From positions 1 through 11,168 of the forward strand of contig CAZHRF010000068.1 in the NCBI GenBank assembly GCA_964534625.1: a DNA stretch of 11,168 bases, in the 5' to 3' direction. Of this stretch, positions 1-10,840 are shown piece by piece (position 1 is the first letter of the stretch; every line of letters begins with the position of its first letter). Source of the DNA: an uncultured archaeon (lineage in GTDB: Archaea; Asgardarchaeota; Heimdallarchaeia; Heimdallarchaeales; Heimdallarchaeaceae). The translations under genes were made by a program, and so were the position numbers. The notes below the pieces were generated by a model. That model had not been told where the DNA came from and made no database searches. It saw nothing but the letters and a program-made list of their open reading frames with translations.

Positions 1-77
1 TAATGAGCAGTAATTTGACCTATACCACCAGTAGCACCTGTTAAAAGAATAACATGTCTATTATCAGTATTGTTCAT
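1..77 (-). CDS. N-terminus of a short-chain dehydrogenase/reductase (SDR), running off the window edge
   Basis: Manual translation of the reverse strand from the ATG at 77 gives MNNTDNRHVILLTGATGGIGQITAH..., the Rossmann TGxxGGIG motif of SDRs. Not in the ORF track because it is truncated. Confidence 0.85.
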   Translation of the reverse strand, partial: MNNTDNRHVILLTGATGGIGQITAH

Positions 78-108: not shown

Positions 109-1254
109 TTAACTCATCGTTGTTTGTTTCCCCATTAAATTGAGTTTAAATTTACGTGTCGTTTCAGGAGATATCTTATTACCGTCTTTATCTTGAAAGT
201 AAATAGCATCACATGGACATTGTACTACACATGCCCCGCATTTAATGCATAATTGGGAATTTACCATGTTGACTCTGTTAGTATTTTTGTTCATTTGATA
301 ACAGTCTCTTGGGCATACATCTATACACACACCTATTCCACGACATTTATCTAGATTAATTTTAATTATCCAATCTTTATTGTCATGTGTGTCACTCTTA
401 TAGATAGGCGTTGTACCCTTAAGCTCCATAATAACAGAGATAACTAGTAGTAAAGACATTATATTCCATCTCAAAAAGAAGTGAAAACTAACAGTTTTTC
501 TAATCAACAAGTACGTTAAAGGAAGAAAGACAACAAAGTTAAAACACAAAATCACGAGGAATTTATATAAGTAGATCTGTATTTTTGATTTTTCGTATTC
601 ACTTAGGATATTGCTATAGAGAGGAAACGATACGAATATCATCAAAGGTATCATCCAGCTTAATATTAACCCCATGTACCATTCGTTGATCCAAAATATC
701 AACACAATGATCTCAACTAGTATAGAAATAGGAAAGGACCAAGCTACTGCCATTTCTATTCTTTCTAAGAATTTGAAGTGAGTTCTAGATTCAACCTTTT
801 TTTTCGAATAATTAGATTTAATGAATAGGTGAATATCTTCTGCATAAATCGGTCCCCAGATTATTTTCCAGCCAGTTTTCTCGCTTACTTTAGCTGGTTC
901 AATTCCCGTTGCAGCTAGTTGCGGTAGTATTACTTCTTTATGATTGACTAAATTCTCAATATTGGTTGTTTTGAGAATTGAAATAACAGAATGATTGTTT
1001 AAATGTCCTCCTGCCGCTGCACACCATACATTTATACCTTTGGTGTCTGCTACTAATAAATAGCAATCCATATTTCTTAATACTTTCATTAGTTTCAGTA
1101 CCGTTAAATGATAATTTACAGTAAGAAAAACAGGAGAAAACTCGTTGGGTTGTCCAATGGTTCGAATTCCAGGTTTACTTGATACAGGAAAAAAGCGTAT
1201 CAATGTTTCCAACATAGAGTATAAGACATAAGTAATCCATCTAAACCTTTTCAT
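109..1254 (-). CDS. HgcAB-like fusion protein: CdhD/E-type (CFeSP-related) corrinoid-binding domain, about 4 transmembrane helices, C-terminal dicluster ferredoxin
   Basis: HgcA-type motifs SPVFLTVNYHLT, LLVADTKGINVWCAAAGG (cap helix, nt 1032-1006), VILPQLAATGI and WGPIYAEDI are present. Four hydrophobic segments follow, then CRGIGVCIDVCP (345-310) and CIKCGACVVQCP (249-214). I prefer the ATG at 1254 to the GTG at 1263 given in the ORF track. Confidence 0.9.
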   Translation of the reverse strand: MKRFRWITYVLYSMLETLIRFFPVSSKPGIRTIGQPNEFSPVFLTVNYHLTVLKLMKVLRNMDCYLLVADTKGINVWCAAAGGHLNNHSVISILKTTNIENLVNHKEVILPQLAATGIEPAKVSEKTGWKIIWGPIYAEDIHLFIKSNYSKKKVESRTHFKFLERIEMAVAWSFPISILVEIIVLIFWINEWYMGLILSWMIPLMIFVSFPLYSNILSEYEKSKIQIYLYKFLVILCFNFVVFLPLTYLLIRKTVSFHFFLRWNIMSLLLVISVIMELKGTTPIYKSDTHDNKDWIIKINLDKCRGIGVCIDVCPRDCYQMNKNTNRVNMVNSQLCIKCGACVVQCPCDAIYFQDKDGNKISPETTRKFKLNLMGKQTTMS

Positions 1255-1915
1255 TTTTTGCACCTATTTCTAAGATTATTAAACTTTCAAAGAGAAAAAG
1301 TTCTTTAGATCGCACTTCAAGCCGATTCTGTTGTAAATAGTCTTGTATTTGAATGATGTCTAGGGGCTTTGTTGTTGTCTGTGAAATGAGGTATGTAATT
1401 ATGATAAGAGGTATTTTAATAATCCAATATAGCATCTTTTTATAAAAAGTTCTTGGTCTAACTTCATCTACAATGATTAATTTTCCCTTGAGAGTCAACA
1501 ATTTAGCTATTTCTTTAATTGCATACTCTCTTTCGTGCTCAGATAATTCGGAAAAACACAATCCACTGACAACGTAATCAAAGGATTGGTTCTCGAATTG
1601 ATCAATTTCAGCTACTCCCATTTCTTTGAATTCAACTTTATCTTCGAGGGGAAGAGAATCAAATCTTTCCCTTGCTAAATCTAACATTTGGGGATTAATA
1701 TCGATCCCAATTAAAGTAACAGCCTGTTTACCTCTCAGACAATTAACTGATAATTTCCCAGTTCCGCATCCTACATCCAGAATTCTTGAATTATTAGTTA
1801 TTTTTTTTCCTACAATGTCATATATTTTATCTAACTTACCTAAGGTTAAAATTTTAATTCCTCTGTCATAGCGTGAGGGCGAAGATTCTAATACTCTCAT
1901 AAAGACGATTGACAT
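1241..1915 (-). CDS. cpaM: Class I SAM-dependent methyltransferase (UbiE-like fold), probably the corrinoid protein-associated type (CpaM-like)
   Basis: Motif I ILDVGCGTG, post-I GIDINPQML, motif II SFDYVVS and motif III GKLIIVDE are present. It has an N-terminal MRVLESSPSRYDRGI and a hydrophobic C-terminal helix. Its 3' end overlaps the start of the HgcAB-like gene. The CpaM label is recalled from memory and not verified. Confidence 0.88.
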   Translation of the reverse strand: MSIVFMRVLESSPSRYDRGIKILTLGKLDKIYDIVGKKITNNSRILDVGCGTGKLSVNCLRGKQAVTLIGIDINPQMLDLARERFDSLPLEDKVEFKEMGVAEIDQFENQSFDYVVSGLCFSELSEHEREYAIKEIAKLLTLKGKLIIVDEVRPRTFYKKMLYWIIKIPLIIITYLISQTTTKPLDIIQIQDYLQQNRLEVRSKELFLFESLIILEIGAKNEKV

Positions 1916-1944
1916 TTTTTTCTCTATTAGACTATTTTTTTTAA

Positions 1945-1958
1945 TATTAAAAAGGTTT
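1945..1958 (-). promoter_or_regulatory. Putative BRE/TATA for the methyltransferase-HgcAB-like operon
   Basis: The minus strand reads aaacctTTTTAATA, ending about 30 nt upstream of the ATG at 1915. Confidence 0.45.
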
Positions 1959-2042: not shown

Positions 2043-2288
2043 ATGAAACCCCCCTATTGTACTATCTGTAATGCTTTCATAAAAGATTTTGATCGTGGTG
2101 GTTTAATCAATTTTAAAAAAACACAAAATAATCTGGAATGGGAACAACGAATGAAAAGAGAAAACAAGGTTGAACATCCTCCTTACGCTGAATGGTTTTG
2201 TGAAGACCATTATCCTATTGCGAACCAATTTTCTCACTTAACTTGGAGTGAAGGAATGAAAAAAATCAGAGAAGTGCTAGATGATTAA
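2043..2288 (+). CDS. Small hypothetical protein, probable Zn-binding (CxxC...CxxH)
   Basis: 81 aa with an ATG start. PPYCTIC near the N-terminus and WFCEDH near the C-terminus provide four potential metal ligands. Confidence 0.75.
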   Translation: MKPPYCTICNAFIKDFDRGGLINFKKTQNNLEWEQRMKRENKVEHPPYAEWFCEDHYPIANQFSHLTWSEGMKKIREVLDD

Positions 2289-2363: not shown

Positions 2364-3731
2364 ATGAACATAGCTGTTAAAGGTAAACTCGCTTTTTTTT
2401 ATGATTCTGATCTTCAATTTCATGTTATACATCATCCATTAATCTTAATTGAAGATAACAGGATCACTTCTGTTGGCAGATATTCTGAACTCAAATCCGA
2501 ACTTTCTGGCGTAGATAAGATAGTTGGAAACGAACATTCACTTATTATACCTGGTCTGATTAATACTCATACTCATTTAGGTATGACCATGTTTCGTGGA
2601 CTTTCAGATGAGCTTCCTCTCAATACTTGGCTTGAAGAACACATATGGCCACTTGAAAAACACATAACAGCTGATGATGTATTAATTAGTGCTAAGGTTG
2701 GTGCTATTGAATCAGCGTTAAGTGGCGTTACAACCATCAATAGTATGTATTGGTTTCCTGAGTCTGAGGCTAAAGCTATTGAAGAAACAAAGATAAGAGC
2801 CATGCTTGGTGCACCTATTCTAGCTAATGAAAAAGCCACAAAAGAGGCTTTTCAGATCGCACGGAAAGTTCATAACACAGTAAATGATAGGATCAGAGGA
2901 TCAATTACTCCTCATGCACCGTATACTGTACCTATTTCCCAATATCAAGAAATACATCAACTTTTAATTGAACATAACAACTCATCAGATAAGGAAAAAG
3001 AAAAGTTTCTGATGCACACTCATTTAGCAGAACCTACTGATGAATTGGCTATTTCTAAGGAATTTAATGAAAAGAAGGCAGAAGAATTTCCTGATGTTAA
3101 TACTCCAGTGGAATTTTTTGATAAAATAGGCATTTTAGATGATAATTTACTTGCTGCTCATTGTATTCATGTAACAGAGAGGGATATACAATTACTATCC
3201 GATCGTGGAGTTAGGGTATCGTTAAATCCTCTTTCTAATTCTAAATTAGGTAATCACATGCCCCCCATACCAAAGATGTTACCTAAACTTGAACGTATAG
3301 GATTAGGAACAGATGGGCCAGCTAGCAATAATACATTAAGCATTTTTGATACTATTCGCTATATGGCACTATTTTACAAAGGATATCATCATGACCCCAC
3401 AATTGTTAAAGCCCAAGATATCTTTAGATTAGCCACAATAGGTGGCGCTAAAGTACTAAAGTGGCAAGGGTTAGGAACACTTGAAGTGGGATCACTTGCG
3501 GATTTAATAACGATAGATCTTAAAAAACCTCACCTTTCTCCTTCACAAAGTAAAATAGAAGATGCAGTAATGAGCCATTTTGCTTATGCAATGAATGGAA
3601 ATGATATTAGTAATACAATTATAGACGGAGAACTGATAGTAGAAAATTCCCAATTAGTTAATCAAAGACTTCTTGATTCGTTAGATGAGCTTGAAAAAGT
3701 TACTCAAAAACTTGTAGACGCGGCTTTGTAA
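2364..3731 (+). CDS. mtaD: Metal-dependent amidohydrolase, 5'-methylthioadenosine/S-adenosylhomocysteine (or 5'-deoxyadenosine) deaminase-like
   Basis: PGLINTHTH (HxH), MTMFRGLSDELPLNTWLEEHIWPLE, PHAPYT, HTHLAE (His plus catalytic Glu), AAHC, GLGTDGPASNN (Asp) and GTLEVGSLADL. The exact substrate cannot be determined from sequence. Confidence 0.85.
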   Translation: MNIAVKGKLAFFYDSDLQFHVIHHPLILIEDNRITSVGRYSELKSELSGVDKIVGNEHSLIIPGLINTHTHLGMTMFRGLSDELPLNTWLEEHIWPLEKHITADDVLISAKVGAIESALSGVTTINSMYWFPESEAKAIEETKIRAMLGAPILANEKATKEAFQIARKVHNTVNDRIRGSITPHAPYTVPISQYQEIHQLLIEHNNSSDKEKEKFLMHTHLAEPTDELAISKEFNEKKAEEFPDVNTPVEFFDKIGILDDNLLAAHCIHVTERDIQLLSDRGVRVSLNPLSNSKLGNHMPPIPKMLPKLERIGLGTDGPASNNTLSIFDTIRYMALFYKGYHHDPTIVKAQDIFRLATIGGAKVLKWQGLGTLEVGSLADLITIDLKKPHLSPSQSKIEDAVMSHFAYAMNGNDISNTIIDGELIVENSQLVNQRLLDSLDELEKVTQKLVDAAL

Positions 3732-4618
3732 TGATTATGTTTTATTGAAATAACAATTATTCCGGTGATAATTATTGTTATAGCCAGTGCTAAAAAGAGA
3801 CCATGAATAATGTTTAATCTTTTCCATTCACCTAGCACAATTCCACCAAACATTATGGGGACAATAACCATTAACCCATTATAAAGCGACATAGTAGTAG
3901 ATATTCTTCCCTCTCGGAAAGCCATCTGTAATCCACCAGTTGAAGATAAAGCTGTAAGAAGGAAGAGGATAATATACAATACTATTTTTAAGATATTAGA
4001 ACTGATAGAAACAGTAGCTGTAAGGTATAGGACCAATCCTTTCATAACAACCGTTTGTAAGCCAGAAGCTATACCCGAAAACACTCCAAATGTAATTGGG
4101 GATAAATGCATATTTCGTATTATTGAATATATTGGCATTGTTACACCTATAAATAATATCACTACTATAAAGATATATGACTCATATGTATTAATATAGG
4201 CTTTCCAATCATCTAAATTTAACTTAGTCAGGTAAAGTGACGAAATGTACGAAGATACTGAAATAGAAACAACTATACCTATAATTGCTAATATTTCTGC
4301 GAGAGAGAATCTTTCTTTTGCTTTTCCATGAGCATATAAAATTAAAAAGATCAATCCTATTCCTGTTAGCGGAGCGATTGCTATTAACGGTGCCCAGATT
4401 AATGCGATAAAATAAAACACTATACTTATCATAGTTAATAATAAACCAGCCATCCATTTCATATTTCTAATTAGTAAAATGAGTAAAGAGAAAAAATTAG
4501 CTTTCTGTACTTCATCAATCTCATCTATTGCTTGTTTTTCAAGAGCAAACCCATAATTGTATAAAACATAATAGAGTGTTCCTGCAATTAAAGAAAGAAT
4601 GAAGTAGAAATTTGTCAT
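3704..4618 (-). CDS. DMT-superfamily membrane transporter, NIPA (Mg2+ transporter)-like
   Basis: About 9 hydrophobic helices. GFALEKQA...KWMAGLLL...FIALIWAPLIAIAPL resembles the NIPA/DMT N-terminal pattern. It overlaps the amidohydrolase 3' end convergently by 28 nt. Confidence 0.8.
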   Translation of the reverse strand: MTNFYFILSLIAGTLYYVLYNYGFALEKQAIDEIDEVQKANFFSLLILLIRNMKWMAGLLLTMISIVFYFIALIWAPLIAIAPLTGIGLIFLILYAHGKAKERFSLAEILAIIGIVVSISVSSYISSLYLTKLNLDDWKAYINTYESYIFIVVILFIGVTMPIYSIIRNMHLSPITFGVFSGIASGLQTVVMKGLVLYLTATVSISSNILKIVLYIILFLLTALSSTGGLQMAFREGRISTTMSLYNGLMVIVPIMFGGIVLGEWKRLNIIHGLFLALAITIIITGIIVISIKHNHYKAASTSF

Positions 4619-7577: not shown

Positions 7578-8313
7578 ATGTCAGCTACCTTTAACAAGGA
7601 AATAGAAAGGTTACGGAATGACAACACTAGCGGTGCTCAAGAGCTTGTATTCCGGGCTTTAAAAAGTTTAGAGCGAGAATTAGAAGACAATCCCAAGGAA
7701 ATTCTAGATTTATTTCCCTTGTTTAAAAAAATAATACAAGTCAACCCCGAAATGACTGTTCTCAGAAATGTTTGCTTACTCCTTATTCAATTTTTAGGAA
7801 AACATAATAGGGGAGAAAAGGTTTTTAGACATATAGAAGGAGCAATAGTCGATTTAGATGAACAAGTGATTCAAGAAGGAATTAATGAGCTAAAAACATA
7901 TTCGAATATATGCACCTTTTCACGTTCTTCAACTCTTCAGGTTGTTACAAAAATTTCAACCTGAAGTGGTGATTATCGGAGCGGATACTATATGCCACAA
8001 TGGTGATAGCATCAATAAAATAGGCAGTTATCCGCTAGCACTAGTATGTAAATCACTGTCGATCCCTTTTATTGTTATTAGCTCTACGCTCAAAAAACAA
8101 ATGCGCCCTAAAGACATCAAAATACTAGCGAGGGGATCTCATGAGATATGGGAAATAGAACAAGAAGGGATAAAAATTGTTAATTATTATTTTGAAAAAG
8201 TCCCAAGAGATTTAATTACGGCATATATTACAGAGGAGGGGTATGTAACGGATGTTCCTTCATTTTCTGTTGATCTCGCTAGTTCGCTAATTGAAAGAAT
8301 CTATTCTATGTAA
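7578..8313 (+). pseudogene. eIF2B alpha/beta/delta / ribose-1,5-bisphosphate isomerase-family gene, split into two frames (7578-7964 and 7942-8313) with an internal deletion
   Basis: The 5' ORF has DNTSGA, NPEMTVLRN and ICTFSRSST. The 3' ORF has VVIIGAD, NKIGSYPLAL, IPFIV, NYYFEKVP and ITAYITEEG. The family's central ESxP..EG...L...GI segment is absent from both frames. Confidence 0.75.
7935..7966. repeat. Perfect 10-bp inverted repeat at the eIF2B break point
   Basis: CTTCAGGTTG (7935-7944), a 12-nt spacer, then CAACCTGAAG (7957-7966). Confidence 0.9.
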
Positions 8314-8320
8314 GAATTTC

Positions 8321-9037
8321 TTATGACCCTTCATCTAACTCTAACTTCTGATTATTGCTCTCTGGTACAATAGGTTCAACATAATAGGCTATTTTTCCAG
8401 CCCATCTTACTTCTCCTGTTCTATAGATGGGATTATTTCTAATGTGTCTAATTCGTGATACTGATAAATTGTATTTCTCACTTAGCATTTTAAGGCTTGT
8501 AAAAGGTTTGTCAACTTCACTCAATATTCGCCTTATTAATGCTCTTTTACTTTCATCAACTACTAATTCTCCTTGTTCTACCTTATAGCCAAAAGGCGGT
8601 CTAGACATTACTTTTTTTTGTTCTAACCTTTTTTTCATGCCCTTGTATCTATTCTTCCTGTATTTCTTCAGCTGTTTTTGTGTTTCTTCTAACTTCGGTG
8701 GTAACTCTGCATTTTTCTTTTTCTTTTCTTCCACATTTTGATATACAATTCCTCTTTTCTTCAACAAGATTTTAACATAACCTAATAGATCCAAGTCTTG
8801 AGTTACTGATTTAGCATCATATATCCACAATTCATCAAATTGGTTCTTTTTGGCCAACTGCAATATATGGTCAAATTCTTCTCTCTCTTCTGGATCTTTA
8901 ATTCTAAAACTTGTTTCTCGAATAATTGTTTTTATTTCCCTCTCTCCTTCTTGATATATTAGTGCTGAAATATCTTCTAATTGTTTCTCAGCTCTTTCTT
9001 CATTTTCTTCATTGATATAAATAATACACCGTTTCAT
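8321..9037 (-). CDS. Serine recombinase-family protein (resolvase-like N-domain plus recombinase DNA-binding domain), catalytically degenerate
   Basis: MKRCIIY..., EREEFDHILQLAKKNQFDELWIY, GMKKRLEQKKVMSRPPFGY and IRNNPIYRTGEVRWAGK...EPIV match the fold. The catalytic YxRxS reads YINEE and DRLxR reads KSVTQ. Confidence 0.8.
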   Translation of the reverse strand: MKRCIIYINEENEERAEKQLEDISALIYQEGEREIKTIIRETSFRIKDPEEREEFDHILQLAKKNQFDELWIYDAKSVTQDLDLLGYVKILLKKRGIVYQNVEEKKKKNAELPPKLEETQKQLKKYRKNRYKGMKKRLEQKKVMSRPPFGYKVEQGELVVDESKRALIRRILSEVDKPFTSLKMLSEKYNLSVSRIRHIRNNPIYRTGEVRWAGKIAYYVEPIVPESNNQKLELDEGS

Positions 9038-9221: not shown

Positions 9222-9689
9222 TCAATCTTCAAATATCATCGGATCTGGTATTTCTTTTTCTGTTTCAGGTTCCTTAGATATGTATCTATTAACGAAATAT
9301 CGTGCAAATTCTATCGCTTCATCCATATCAAATGGAGTTTCTTCTCCTGCTCTCTTCATACTTGATAATTTTTGTCTTAATAATCCTGTAGTTAACGCTA
9401 TAACTCTATTTTGATCATATAGACTATTTGCTTTAAATCTGATTTTTGCTGCGTCTCCTAATAGTTCTGAATACTCTTCTTTTAATTCTAGAAATTGTTT
9501 TTGAATTTCTTTTCTTTCTTTTTCTATTTCTTCTATTGCCATTTCTTGTATTTTTTCTGGAACATGATCAAAATAACCTATGTAATTCACTAAATCTTGT
9601 ACAAACTGTTCTTCATTTTCAATTGGCATCTTGTCTTTGAATTTAATTTTAAACATTGTACTGCTACGGATCTTTATTCGTCTGCTCAT
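9222..9689 (-). CDS. Hypothetical helical/coiled-coil protein (155 aa)
   Basis: ATG preceded by SD-like GTGAGG overlapping the upstream stop codon. It has a charged, heptad-like central region (EEIEKERKEIQKQFLELKEEYSELL). No family recognised. Confidence 0.8.
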   Translation of the reverse strand: MSRRIKIRSSTMFKIKFKDKMPIENEEQFVQDLVNYIGYFDHVPEKIQEMAIEEIEKERKEIQKQFLELKEEYSELLGDAAKIRFKANSLYDQNRVIALTTGLLRQKLSSMKRAGEETPFDMDEAIEFARYFVNRYISKEPETEKEIPDPMIFED

Positions 9690-9696
9690 GTTATCC

Positions 9697-10071
9697 TCAC
9701 TTCCACTTAATTCCCATCTCTTTTAATTGATCTTCATATGTTGTCAATTCGGAATAATCTTGCTTATATTCTATAATGGCATCTTTAAGTATTTGTACTA
9801 ATTCTTCTATTTTTATCATATCGTCTTTCCGTCTATCCAATCTATCTTTGTATTCTGCATATTTTATTGCAGCTTTAAAATAAGTATAAAAATCAACATC
9901 ACTATCTTTTCCATGGTTATTTTGCCAACCTTTGTATATCCAGTGCATAACACGCTTATACCGTTCTAGGATGGCTTCCTCGCTTATTTTTCTGTTGTCT
10001 CGATGGTTTTTAATCATTCGTGACTGATTAATGTTGAATCTTATTTTTTTCACTTTTTTCATATGTTTCAC
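9697..10071 (-). CDS. Hypothetical helical protein (about 121-124 aa)
   Basis: Open frame with a GTG at 10071 or an ATG at 10062. The stop lies 7 nt before the next ATG. No family recognised. Confidence 0.75.
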   Translation of the reverse strand: MKHMKKVKKIRFNINQSRMIKNHRDNRKISEEAILERYKRVMHWIYKGWQNNHGKDSDVDFYTYFKAAIKYAEYKDRLDRRKDDMIKIEELVQILKDAIIEYKQDYSELTTYEDQLKEMGIKWK

Positions 10072-10171: not shown

Positions 10172-10840
10172 TTAATTTAATTCCGCCATCATCATTCTAA
10201 ATGGTTCCAAGAATGTTGCTGGATCCAAATTCGATGTCTCGTAAATAGGTATTGCTTCATTTAGTTCTGAATCTGCAATATCTTCTGCCACACGTTTACC
10301 AAGATAGACTCCTTTTTTCTTTAGGTCTGCTTTATTCACAAATATCATAATGGGTATCTCCTTGCCTGTTCTTTCACGTTCATCTTTCACAAGGCTGATA
10401 TATTCCACTATTTTTTGAAGTGAAGATATATTAGTACCATCTGCCATTATTATGACTAGATCTGATCCTTTTACTGCTATTTCTTGCATGAAACTAAACC
10501 TATCTTGCCCTGCAGGATCATTAAACACCACTTGATATGCATCATCTACGTGTGTGTAATCAATTTCTTCCTTGTTTTTCATTTTTTCAAGAACAACCGT
10601 ATTATGAGTTGTAAGGCACATAATTGAATCCACAACATTGAGTGAAACAGTTGTAGTACTCTGGGAGAAATCTGAATCTTTAATGGGTATAAAGTCGTAA
10701 TTATCGGCGGATTCTGCGCCTACTCGTCTTTCCACATCGCTTTTATGAAAATCCCCAAATACACTACTCAAAAAACTTGTTTTGCCACTACCTGTTGTAC
10801 CAAGAATACTGACCTTGCGAATTTGTGCGCTCTTTAACAT
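10172..10840 (-). CDS. Ras-superfamily small GTPase (Rab/Arf/MglA-like) with insertions
   Basis: G1 GTTGSGKT, G2 candidate TTTVSLN, G3 DPAGQDRF, G4 NKAD, G5-like ETSN. Confidence 0.92.
   Translation of the reverse strand: MLKSAQIRKVSILGTTGSGKTSFLSSVFGDFHKSDVERRVGAESADNYDFIPIKDSDFSQSTTTVSLNVVDSIMCLTTHNTVVLEKMKNKEEIDYTHVDDAYQVVFNDPAGQDRFSFMQEIAVKGSDLVIIMADGTNISSLQKIVEYISLVKDERERTGKEIPIMIFVNKADLKKKGVYLGKRVAEDIADSELNEAIPIYETSNLDPATFLEPFRMMMAELN

Follow-up and report, generated by a model that had tools for sequence, protein, structure and literature searches.

What does a membrane protein that looks like HgcA and HgcB joined in one chain do with a methyl group, and from where does it receive it? 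This question is raised by a stretch of DNA of 11,168 bp, hereafter the window, which is a complete contig (CAZHRF010000068.1) of the assembly GCA_964534625.1 from an uncultured archaeon of the Heimdallarchaeaceae (genome 3.37 Mb, completeness 89.8%). It carries a gene for a class I S-adenosylmethionine (SAM)-dependent methyltransferase, CpaM, whose stop overlaps by 14 nt the start of a gene for a fusion of corrinoid, transmembrane (TM) and ferredoxin domains; the two open reading frames (ORFs) read exactly where an earlier note on this DNA (the original prediction) had placed them (Table 1). We show that the gene partnership between CpaM and the HgcAB-like protein is obligate, and we consider it rather probable that CpaM moves the methyl group of SAM to the Cys-ligated Co(I) of its partner, with the ferredoxin re-reducing the cobalt and the methyl group passing on to an acceptor, probably other than mercury, at the membrane domain. 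In this account we infer the direction of methyl flow, the cofactor content and the acceptor.

Both proteins belong to catalogued families. The product of cpaM (P0001) matches Pfam Methyltransf_25/11/31 and the NCBIfam model NF043040, CpaM or ‘corrinoid protein-associated methyltransferase’ (a hypothetical equivalog in NCBIfam), with 246.8 bits against a cut-off of 180 over profile positions 1-213 of 216. The fusion protein reaches 402.5 bits against a cut-off of 285 with NF043039, ‘HgcAB-like fusion protein’, covers 348 of the 350 profile positions and has the architecture of that family, in which one chain joins a corrinoid domain, whose cap helix bears NVWC, to four TM helices and a ferredoxin. 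Given these strong Pfam and NCBIfam matches and the conserved columns, the ORF pair is evidently not a product of chance. Of the columns with a conservation of 95% or more among 119 relatives, the window keeps 79/85 in the fusion protein (R380Q and G101N are among the six substitutions) and 44/47 in CpaM, so that the module looks functional rather than decaying despite its divergence. To judge from its sequence, it is an ordinary, somewhat divergent Heimdall-lineage copy of the catalogued CpaM/HgcAB-like module. The fusion protein shares with the NF043039 family the architecture, both ferredoxin motifs, the clade and the upstream CpaM gene, and stands apart in its divergence (full-length identity to its best relative of ~51% at most, and a terminal branch of 0.53 in our tree against a median of 0.12), whereas in CpaM nothing material differs from its family: all signature motifs are present, and the gene has its usual place beside the fusion gene on the same strand, with an overlap of 14 nt where 4 nt is usual.

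Conserved linkage is the first line of evidence for a partnership. In a scan of one genome per species we found 381 relatives of the fusion protein, of which 80 loci were fetched and searched with hidden Markov models built from sets of homologues. In 78 of the 80, from more than 15 phyla, the gene next upstream on the same strand is a strong CpaM match, and in the remaining two the fusion gene touches the contig end; hence all informative loci (78/78) carry CpaM. The linked loci come from Heimdallarchaeota, Thermococcaceae, Methanococcoides, Hydrothermarchaeota, Chloroflexota and Aminicenantes, and further from Atribacterota, Desulfobacterales, Spirochaetota, Calditrichota, Ignavibacteriota and others; examples of carriers of the fused protein are Pyrococcus furiosus, Methanococcoides methylutens and Kosmotoga pacifica. 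The two genes overlap in 50 of the 78 loci, by 4 nt in 41 of these, and are 0-17 nt apart in a further 22, and these tight junctions (72/78 overlapping or within 17 nt) bear out the translational coupling that had been suggested from the window. Clustering of every ORF lying up to about 4-5 kb from the fusion gene in the 80 loci brought out no third conserved gene: only shadow ORFs recur beyond the pair, and the best real neighbour is common to 8 loci, all of close relatives. As the pair has no such constant companion, the acceptor is probably a general compound of the cell or the environment and not a pathway intermediate.

A sample of 301 Asgard genomes gave a similar picture: 58 contain a fusion protein and 67 a CpaM that exceed the respective cut-offs. 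The two genes are adjacent by their coordinates wherever one contig lists both, and most of the genomes with one gene only show it at or near a contig end. In five genomes with the fused gene, canonical HgcA was absent.

Of the 58 Asgard genomes in which the fusion protein was found, 13 go a step further: a single open frame of 597-672 amino acids (aa) holds both CpaM and the HgcAB-like protein. In five such ORFs that were mapped (600-668 aa, CpaM plus corrinoid, TM and ferredoxin domains), the CpaM part spans aa ~6-243 and is followed in the same frame by the HgcAB-like part at aa ~250-644. These fusions were found through genome searches; a protein search restricted to 673-2000 aa returned one protein of 731 aa with methyltransferase, CdhD and Fer4 domains. 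As ‘Rosetta-stone’ fusions, they argue for direct cooperation of the methyltransferase with the corrinoid protein. Two further Asgard architectures were seen. In one, a CpaM-HgcA-like fusion of ~554 aa is without the ferredoxin domain; in the other, a more distant methyltransferase-HgcA-like fusion ends in ...LMGW-TGA and a separate ferredoxin gene follows directly. The methyltransferase part of the distant type is CpaM-like (~70-86 bits), and these fusions form a clade of their own in the tree. We considered selenocysteine at the single in-frame TGA of many Asgard HgcA-like matches and rejected it, as this TGA is an ordinary stop before the ferredoxin gene.

A structural model of the pair points in the same direction. 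The complex of CpaM and the fusion protein was predicted with ESMFold2, using our own alignments, in three runs, which gave an ipSAE (interface score from predicted aligned errors) of 0.61 (0.62/0.61/0.61) against 0.00 for the best control; in our calibration this mark was reached by 58/80 solved complexes and 2/110 mismatched pairs. At least 56% of the contacts are common to the runs, and the predicted local distance difference test (pLDDT) score of the partner is at least 75. On CpaM the contacts fall on residues 73, 75-76, 98-103, 125-128 and 130-131, which are loops around the SAM pocket, and on the fusion protein (numbered throughout in the GTG form, P0002, 384 aa) on residues 31-32, 73, 89, 91, 94-96, 98-100, 129 and 371-372, most of which belong to the helix that directly follows the cap helix. 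By a hand count, 10/14 of the interface residues of the fusion protein and 7/15 of those of CpaM are invariant or nearly so, against ~30% and 27% overall, respectively. The model supports binding of CpaM to the corrinoid protein with its SAM-side loops on the corrinoid domain, and we know of no solved homologous complex that it could have copied. Together with the 78/78 adjacency, the tight junctions and the natural fusions, this complex model, which passes its controls, upholds the proposed physical partnership of the methyltransferase with the corrinoid protein.

These observations can be assembled into a rough proposal. CpaM would bind SAM and, through the loops on its SAM side, dock on the corrinoid domain that the membrane protein exposes to the cytoplasm, where it would methylate the Cys81-ligated cob(I)amide to methyl-cob(III)amide. 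The fused ferredoxin would supply low-potential electrons to return cob(II) to cob(I), and the methyl group would leave to an acceptor reached at the four-helix membrane domain. A similar logic operates in the corrinoid iron-sulfur protein (CFeSP) of carbon monoxide dehydrogenase/acetyl-CoA synthase (CODH/ACS; AcsC/CdhE, 4djd and 2h9a), whose corrinoid-binding domain is homologous to that of the window protein: a separate methyltransferase (MeTr) binds to the B12 domain, and reductive activation depends on an Fe-S cluster. CFeSP differs in being soluble and in lacking the cap-helix Cys ligand, and it takes its methyl group from methyl-tetrahydrofolate or methyl-tetrahydromethanopterin through a TIM-barrel methyltransferase and donates it to the Ni of ACS.

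The same arrangement of proteins could serve a different purpose. In MetH, SAM-dependent reductive methylation is the established rescue route, and CpaM might be a repair methylase of this kind, in which SAM and a ferredoxin electron rescue cob(II) only and the routine methyl donor is another compound, for example a methylated pterin, thiol, amine or methoxylated aromatic. With a ferredoxin in the same chain, the protein is suited to reductive activation, and adjacency, natural fusions and complex model fit repair as well as they fit catalytic loading. We nevertheless find repair alone unlikely: neither a TIM-barrel-type corrinoid methyltransferase nor any other conserved gene occurs in the 80 loci, and SAM is the catalytic donor of canonical HgcAB (PMC11588087). 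The latter study, in which SAM can methylate HgcA-bound cobalamin, confirms the donor named in the original prediction and does not mention the fused forms.

CpaM itself offers few clues to a substrate. Its AlphaFold2 (AF2) model (pLDDT 85) has the Rossmann methyltransferase fold, and a fold search returned only generic class I methyltransferases, the closest being Coq5, MM_2633, CysG and CmoA with TM-scores of ~0.7, and gave no substrate clue. Outside its own family the best matches in sequence and fold are of the UbiE/MenG/Coq5 type (68.8 bits with TIGR01934, far below the cut-off of 158; 4obw, TM-score ~0.7), in which the EMGVAE and SGLCFSELS motifs of CpaM and its obligate corrinoid partner are absent. 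The invariant Cys of the latter motif, Cys120 (window 1558-1556, minus strand), lies at the end of strand 4, where in class I methyltransferases the residues beside the transferred methyl group sit; it may contact a metal or the cobalt, or take part in catalysis.

The likeness to UbiE/Coq5, together with a conserved hydrophobic helix, suggests another reading, in which CpaM methylates a hydrophobic small-molecule or lipid substrate of its own and the corrinoid/ferredoxin protein converts that same substrate by other chemistry, for example reduction or dehalogenation, with no methyl relay between the two. Such pathway partners seem improbable to us, since in the predicted interface the corrinoid domain faces the loops on the SAM side of CpaM, the short-linker single-polypeptide fusions suggest direct cooperation, and the module is carried by Thermococcales, which are not known to have quinones. 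A 2026 preprint does claim halomethane dechlorination by HgcAB; however, the fused forms are not mentioned there (10.64898/2026.04.26.720869).

The corrinoid domain of the fusion protein matches Pfam PF03599 (73 bits, P0002 aa 26-144), with CFeSP large subunits as PDB sequence matches (4djd_C and 2h9a_A, aa 26-152). In the cap helix, N78, V79, W80, C81, G85 and G86 are invariant in 20 diverse relatives, and by analogy with HgcA, in which the cap-helix Cys ligates cobalt (PMC11588087), Cys81 is presumed to be the cobalt ligand. The four TM helices were assigned from the secondary structure of the AF2 model (mean pLDDT 70.6) and the hydrophobic sequence; W175, F177, F213-P214, W266 and the motif G283-x-T-P-x-x-K-S are conserved in this region, and because the number of helices is even, the corrinoid and ferredoxin domains would lie on the same, presumably cytoplasmic, side of the membrane. 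The ferredoxin has a first motif of the form C307-x5-C313-x3-C317-P-x2-C321 (CRGIGVCIDVCPRDC, beginning at aa 307) in place of CxxCxxCxxxCP, and a second, C339-x2-C342-x2-C345-x3-C349-P, that includes C339-I-K-C-G-A-C345; its eight Cys are invariant in the 20 relatives. As 7Fe ferredoxins are among the PDB sequence matches and motif 1 resembles theirs, one cluster may be 3Fe-4S, or C321 may serve as a ligand. The tail that follows, RKFKLNLMG (aa 370-378), is conserved at 7/9 positions in the family alignment.

The canonical proteins have a homologous corrinoid domain with the cap-helix Cys, a membrane domain and a ferredoxin partner, and probably the same methyl source in SAM, yet the window protein departs from them in several respects. 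The HgcA model NF040863 fails (145.7 bits against 275, profile positions 31-192 only), as do the HgcB model NF040864 (43.3 bits against 99) and the model for the gamma subunit of acetyl-CoA decarbonylase/synthase, or CdhE (NF003195; 96.5 bits against 306). The cap helix reads NVWCAAAGG in place of the HgcA consensus N(V/I)WCA(A/G)GK (taken from the original prediction), with the Cys kept and the Lys missing. The HgcB part is fused, its first cluster motif is altered, and the chain ends in ...MGKQTTMS without the C-terminal Cys pair. These differences, noted in part in the original prediction (NVWCAAAGG, CIKCGAC and the missing Cys pair are all present as it described them), are family-wide: the altered first motif, C-x5-C-x3-CP-x2-C, is found in 121/121 fused proteins and a CC near the C-terminus in only three, whereas HgcB proteins encoded beside hgcA have two CxxCxxCxxxCP motifs in 20/20 cases and a Cys-rich tail in nearly all. 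Canonical HgcAB loci also need no separate SAM methyltransferase gene, while the fused module has one, and they make methylmercury, which the tested fused relatives do not: M. methylutens, whose hgcAB is fused, did not exceed the controls, and P. furiosus is quoted there as negative too (PMC5893877), in agreement with what had been stated at the outset.

A quick IQ-TREE of the corrinoid domain (141 columns, 79 rows, with support from the Shimodaira-Hasegawa-like approximate likelihood ratio test, SH-aLRT, only) sets the fused proteins apart in the same manner. With CdhE as outgroup (SH-aLRT 98), the canonical bacterial and archaeal HgcA proteins form one clade (99) and the two-gene fused proteins, the window included, a separate one (97), to which the Asgard triple fusions are sister (89). 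The fused and canonical clades are sisters in this tree, which does not imply that either is the ancestor; the ancestral role suggested in the original prediction would go beyond it. The window is placed among Heimdallarchaeota rows (92), and the closest relatives of both of its proteins are from Heimdallarchaeota metagenome-assembled genomes; these, with a Ras/Roc-family small GTPase of a kind typical of Asgard archaea (222 aa, window 10172-10840, minus strand), support the Asgard origin that had been proposed from the sequence. The profile scoring, tree, linkage count and complex prediction that the original prediction had put forward as checks thus found the linkage conserved, an interaction predicted and the protein outside the canonical HgcA clade.

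From the missing C-terminal Cys pair, the failure of the HgcA and HgcB models and the Hg-negative organisms with fused genes, we think that the acceptor is probably not Hg(II). That the pair is a true mercury methylase after all, with negative cultures due to poor expression or Hg uptake, is very unlikely, for although the protein retains the NVWC cap helix with its presumed cobalt-ligating Cys, the domain order is that of HgcA plus HgcB and only two organisms were tested (PMC5893877), both of these were negative, the equivalog models fail, the clade is separate, the first Fe-S motif differs and the Cys-rich C-terminus is rare.

Several points weigh against cobalt loading by CpaM and a relay to the membrane domain, the account that we favour. 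To our knowledge, no biochemistry exists for any member of the family. Since canonical HgcAB needs no separate methyltransferase to use SAM, CpaM may do something other than load cobalt, and its closest structures are small-molecule C-, O- and N-methyltransferases such as Coq5, not corrinoid methyltransferases. The complex model is a prediction without cofactors, and the cap-helix region has a pLDDT below 50 in the monomer model. Finally, CobS and CbiB were not found in the genome (89.8% complete), and the corrinoid is therefore probably imported. The fusion protein is the only PF03599 protein in a genome-wide profile search, which indicates that the corrinoid protein of CODH/ACS and canonical HgcA are absent from this genome; it encodes two other proteins with a B12-binding domain.

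A broader claim, which we advance tentatively, is that CpaM may be the first Rossmann-fold (class I) SAM methyltransferase that acts on the cobalt of a corrinoid protein, and that the module may form a self-contained SAM-to-B12 relay in the membrane, serving a non-mercury acceptor such as a soft metal or metalloid, or sulfide. If this were true, the relay would be widespread in anaerobes of more than 15 phyla, and the Asgard architectures (two-gene, triple, methyltransferase-HgcA, and methyltransferase-HgcA with a separate ferredoxin) would record repeated joining of methyltransferase and corrinoid parts.

What the HgcA superfamily does natively is a genuine question in mercury biogeochemistry, and the fused clade is routinely caught in surveys of hgcAB, where it is treated as a paralogue or as a non-methylator. 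‘Fused HgcAB’ was reportedly described by Podar in 2015 and Gilmour in 2018. The interpretation in the original prediction is supported in part; its domain reading stands, but the module, which it took to be uncharacterised, is not new: NCBIfam has models for both halves (NF043039 and NF043040), so that the pairing has already been recognised and named by curators, and a fused hgcAB clade with Asgard members was described by Lin et al. (bioRxiv 10.1101/2022.11.21.517362). The name CpaM, or ‘corrinoid protein-associated methyltransferase’, was in no paper found by our literature search, and a search by P. furiosus locus tags gave nothing relevant. What is new here are the Asgard single-polypeptide fusions, the family-wide difference in the ferredoxin motif and the controlled complex prediction. 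With an obligate SAM methyltransferase, the Asgard fusions and a docked model, ‘function unknown’ becomes a defined in-vitro question, that of SAM-dependent cobalt methylation, to which the window adds little beyond other members of the family, including those of culturable Thermococcales.

Table 1. Coordinates of the module in the window, of the motifs of its proteins, and of related architectures in other Asgard loci.
Feature	Position	Strand	Details
cpaM	1915..1241	minus	224 aa (P0001), ATG start, TAG stop 1243-1241
HgcAB-like fusion gene	1254..109	minus	381 aa from ATG 1254-1252, TAA stop 111-109
Fusion gene, alternative GTG start	1263..109	minus	384 aa (P0002)
Overlap of cpaM stop and fusion start	1241..1254	minus	14 nt, read from the sequence
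Corrinoid-binding (CdhD-like) domain	784..1188	minus	P0002 aa 26-160
Cap-helix motif NVWCAAAGG	1006..1032	minus	aa 78-86; Cys81 = codon 1023-1021
Membrane domain, four predicted TM helices	415..771	minus	aa 165-190, 192-224, 229-255, 260-283
C-terminal ferredoxin domain	169..372	minus	aa 298-365; Pfam Fer4 families aa 298-363
CpaM signature ESSPSRYDRG	P0001 aa 10-19		family alignment; invariant core ESxPxRYD
SAM motif I LDVGCGTG	P0001 aa 46-53		
CpaM signature EMGVAE	P0001 aa 98-103		family alignment, invariant
CpaM signature SGLCFSELS	P0001 aa 117-125		family alignment, Cys120 invariant
CpaM hydrophobic helix	P0001 aa 157-178		family alignment, conserved
Triple fusion	L097:1186-2985	minus	
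Triple fusion	L100:1063-2895	minus	
Triple fusion	L098:1456-3405	plus	
Triple fusion	L099:1413-3416	plus	
Triple fusion	L101:1377-3311	plus	
Further architectures (two types)	L102:646-2871	plus	
Further architectures (two types)	L103:978-3044	minus	
Further architectures (two types)	L104:593-2713	plus	
Further architectures (two types)	L106:613-2406	plus	
Further architectures (two types)	L105:699-2369	minus	

Of the two possible starts of the fusion gene, the ATG at 1254 is preferred over the GTG at 1263 when N-termini are aligned with those of relatives, and a GGTG lies 8-11 nt upstream of this ATG in the window sequence. A TATA-like TTTTTAATATTAA is found at window 1941-1953 (minus strand), 26-38 nt before the start codon of cpaM; it would be consistent with an archaeal promoter and a nearly leaderless cpaM transcript, but since the DNA has only 32% G+C the match could easily be chance.

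The remainder of the window holds genes outside the module. The ORFs at 7578-7964, 8321-9037, 9222-9689 and 9697-10071 have no family match, and no Rfam families or tRNAs were found in the window. Directly downstream of the fusion gene (window 1-77, minus strand), the N-terminus of a protein resembling short-chain dehydrogenases/reductases (MNNTDNRHVILLTGATGGIGQ..., with a TGxxxGxG motif) is cut by the contig end, and such a gene recurs in this position in none of the 80 related loci. Divergently upstream of cpaM lies a gene for an amidohydrolase of 455 aa (window 2364-3731, plus strand) of the group that resembles deaminases acting on methylthioadenosine, S-adenosylhomocysteine (SAH) or 5'-deoxyadenosine, with best NCBIfam matches of 330 bits that are below the cut-offs, followed by a transporter of the drug/metabolite transporter type (window 3704-4618, minus strand). 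Synteny of the two with the module extends to 4-7 Heimdall-lineage loci (~50% identity) and not to other phyla; a link to CpaM through SAH recycling is possible, but common descent accounts for the synteny just as well. Between cpaM and the amidohydrolase gene, an ORF of 81 aa (window 2043-2288, plus strand) has no Pfam or NCBIfam match, and its Cys/His pairs (CTIC ... CEDH) suggest a small zinc-binding protein.

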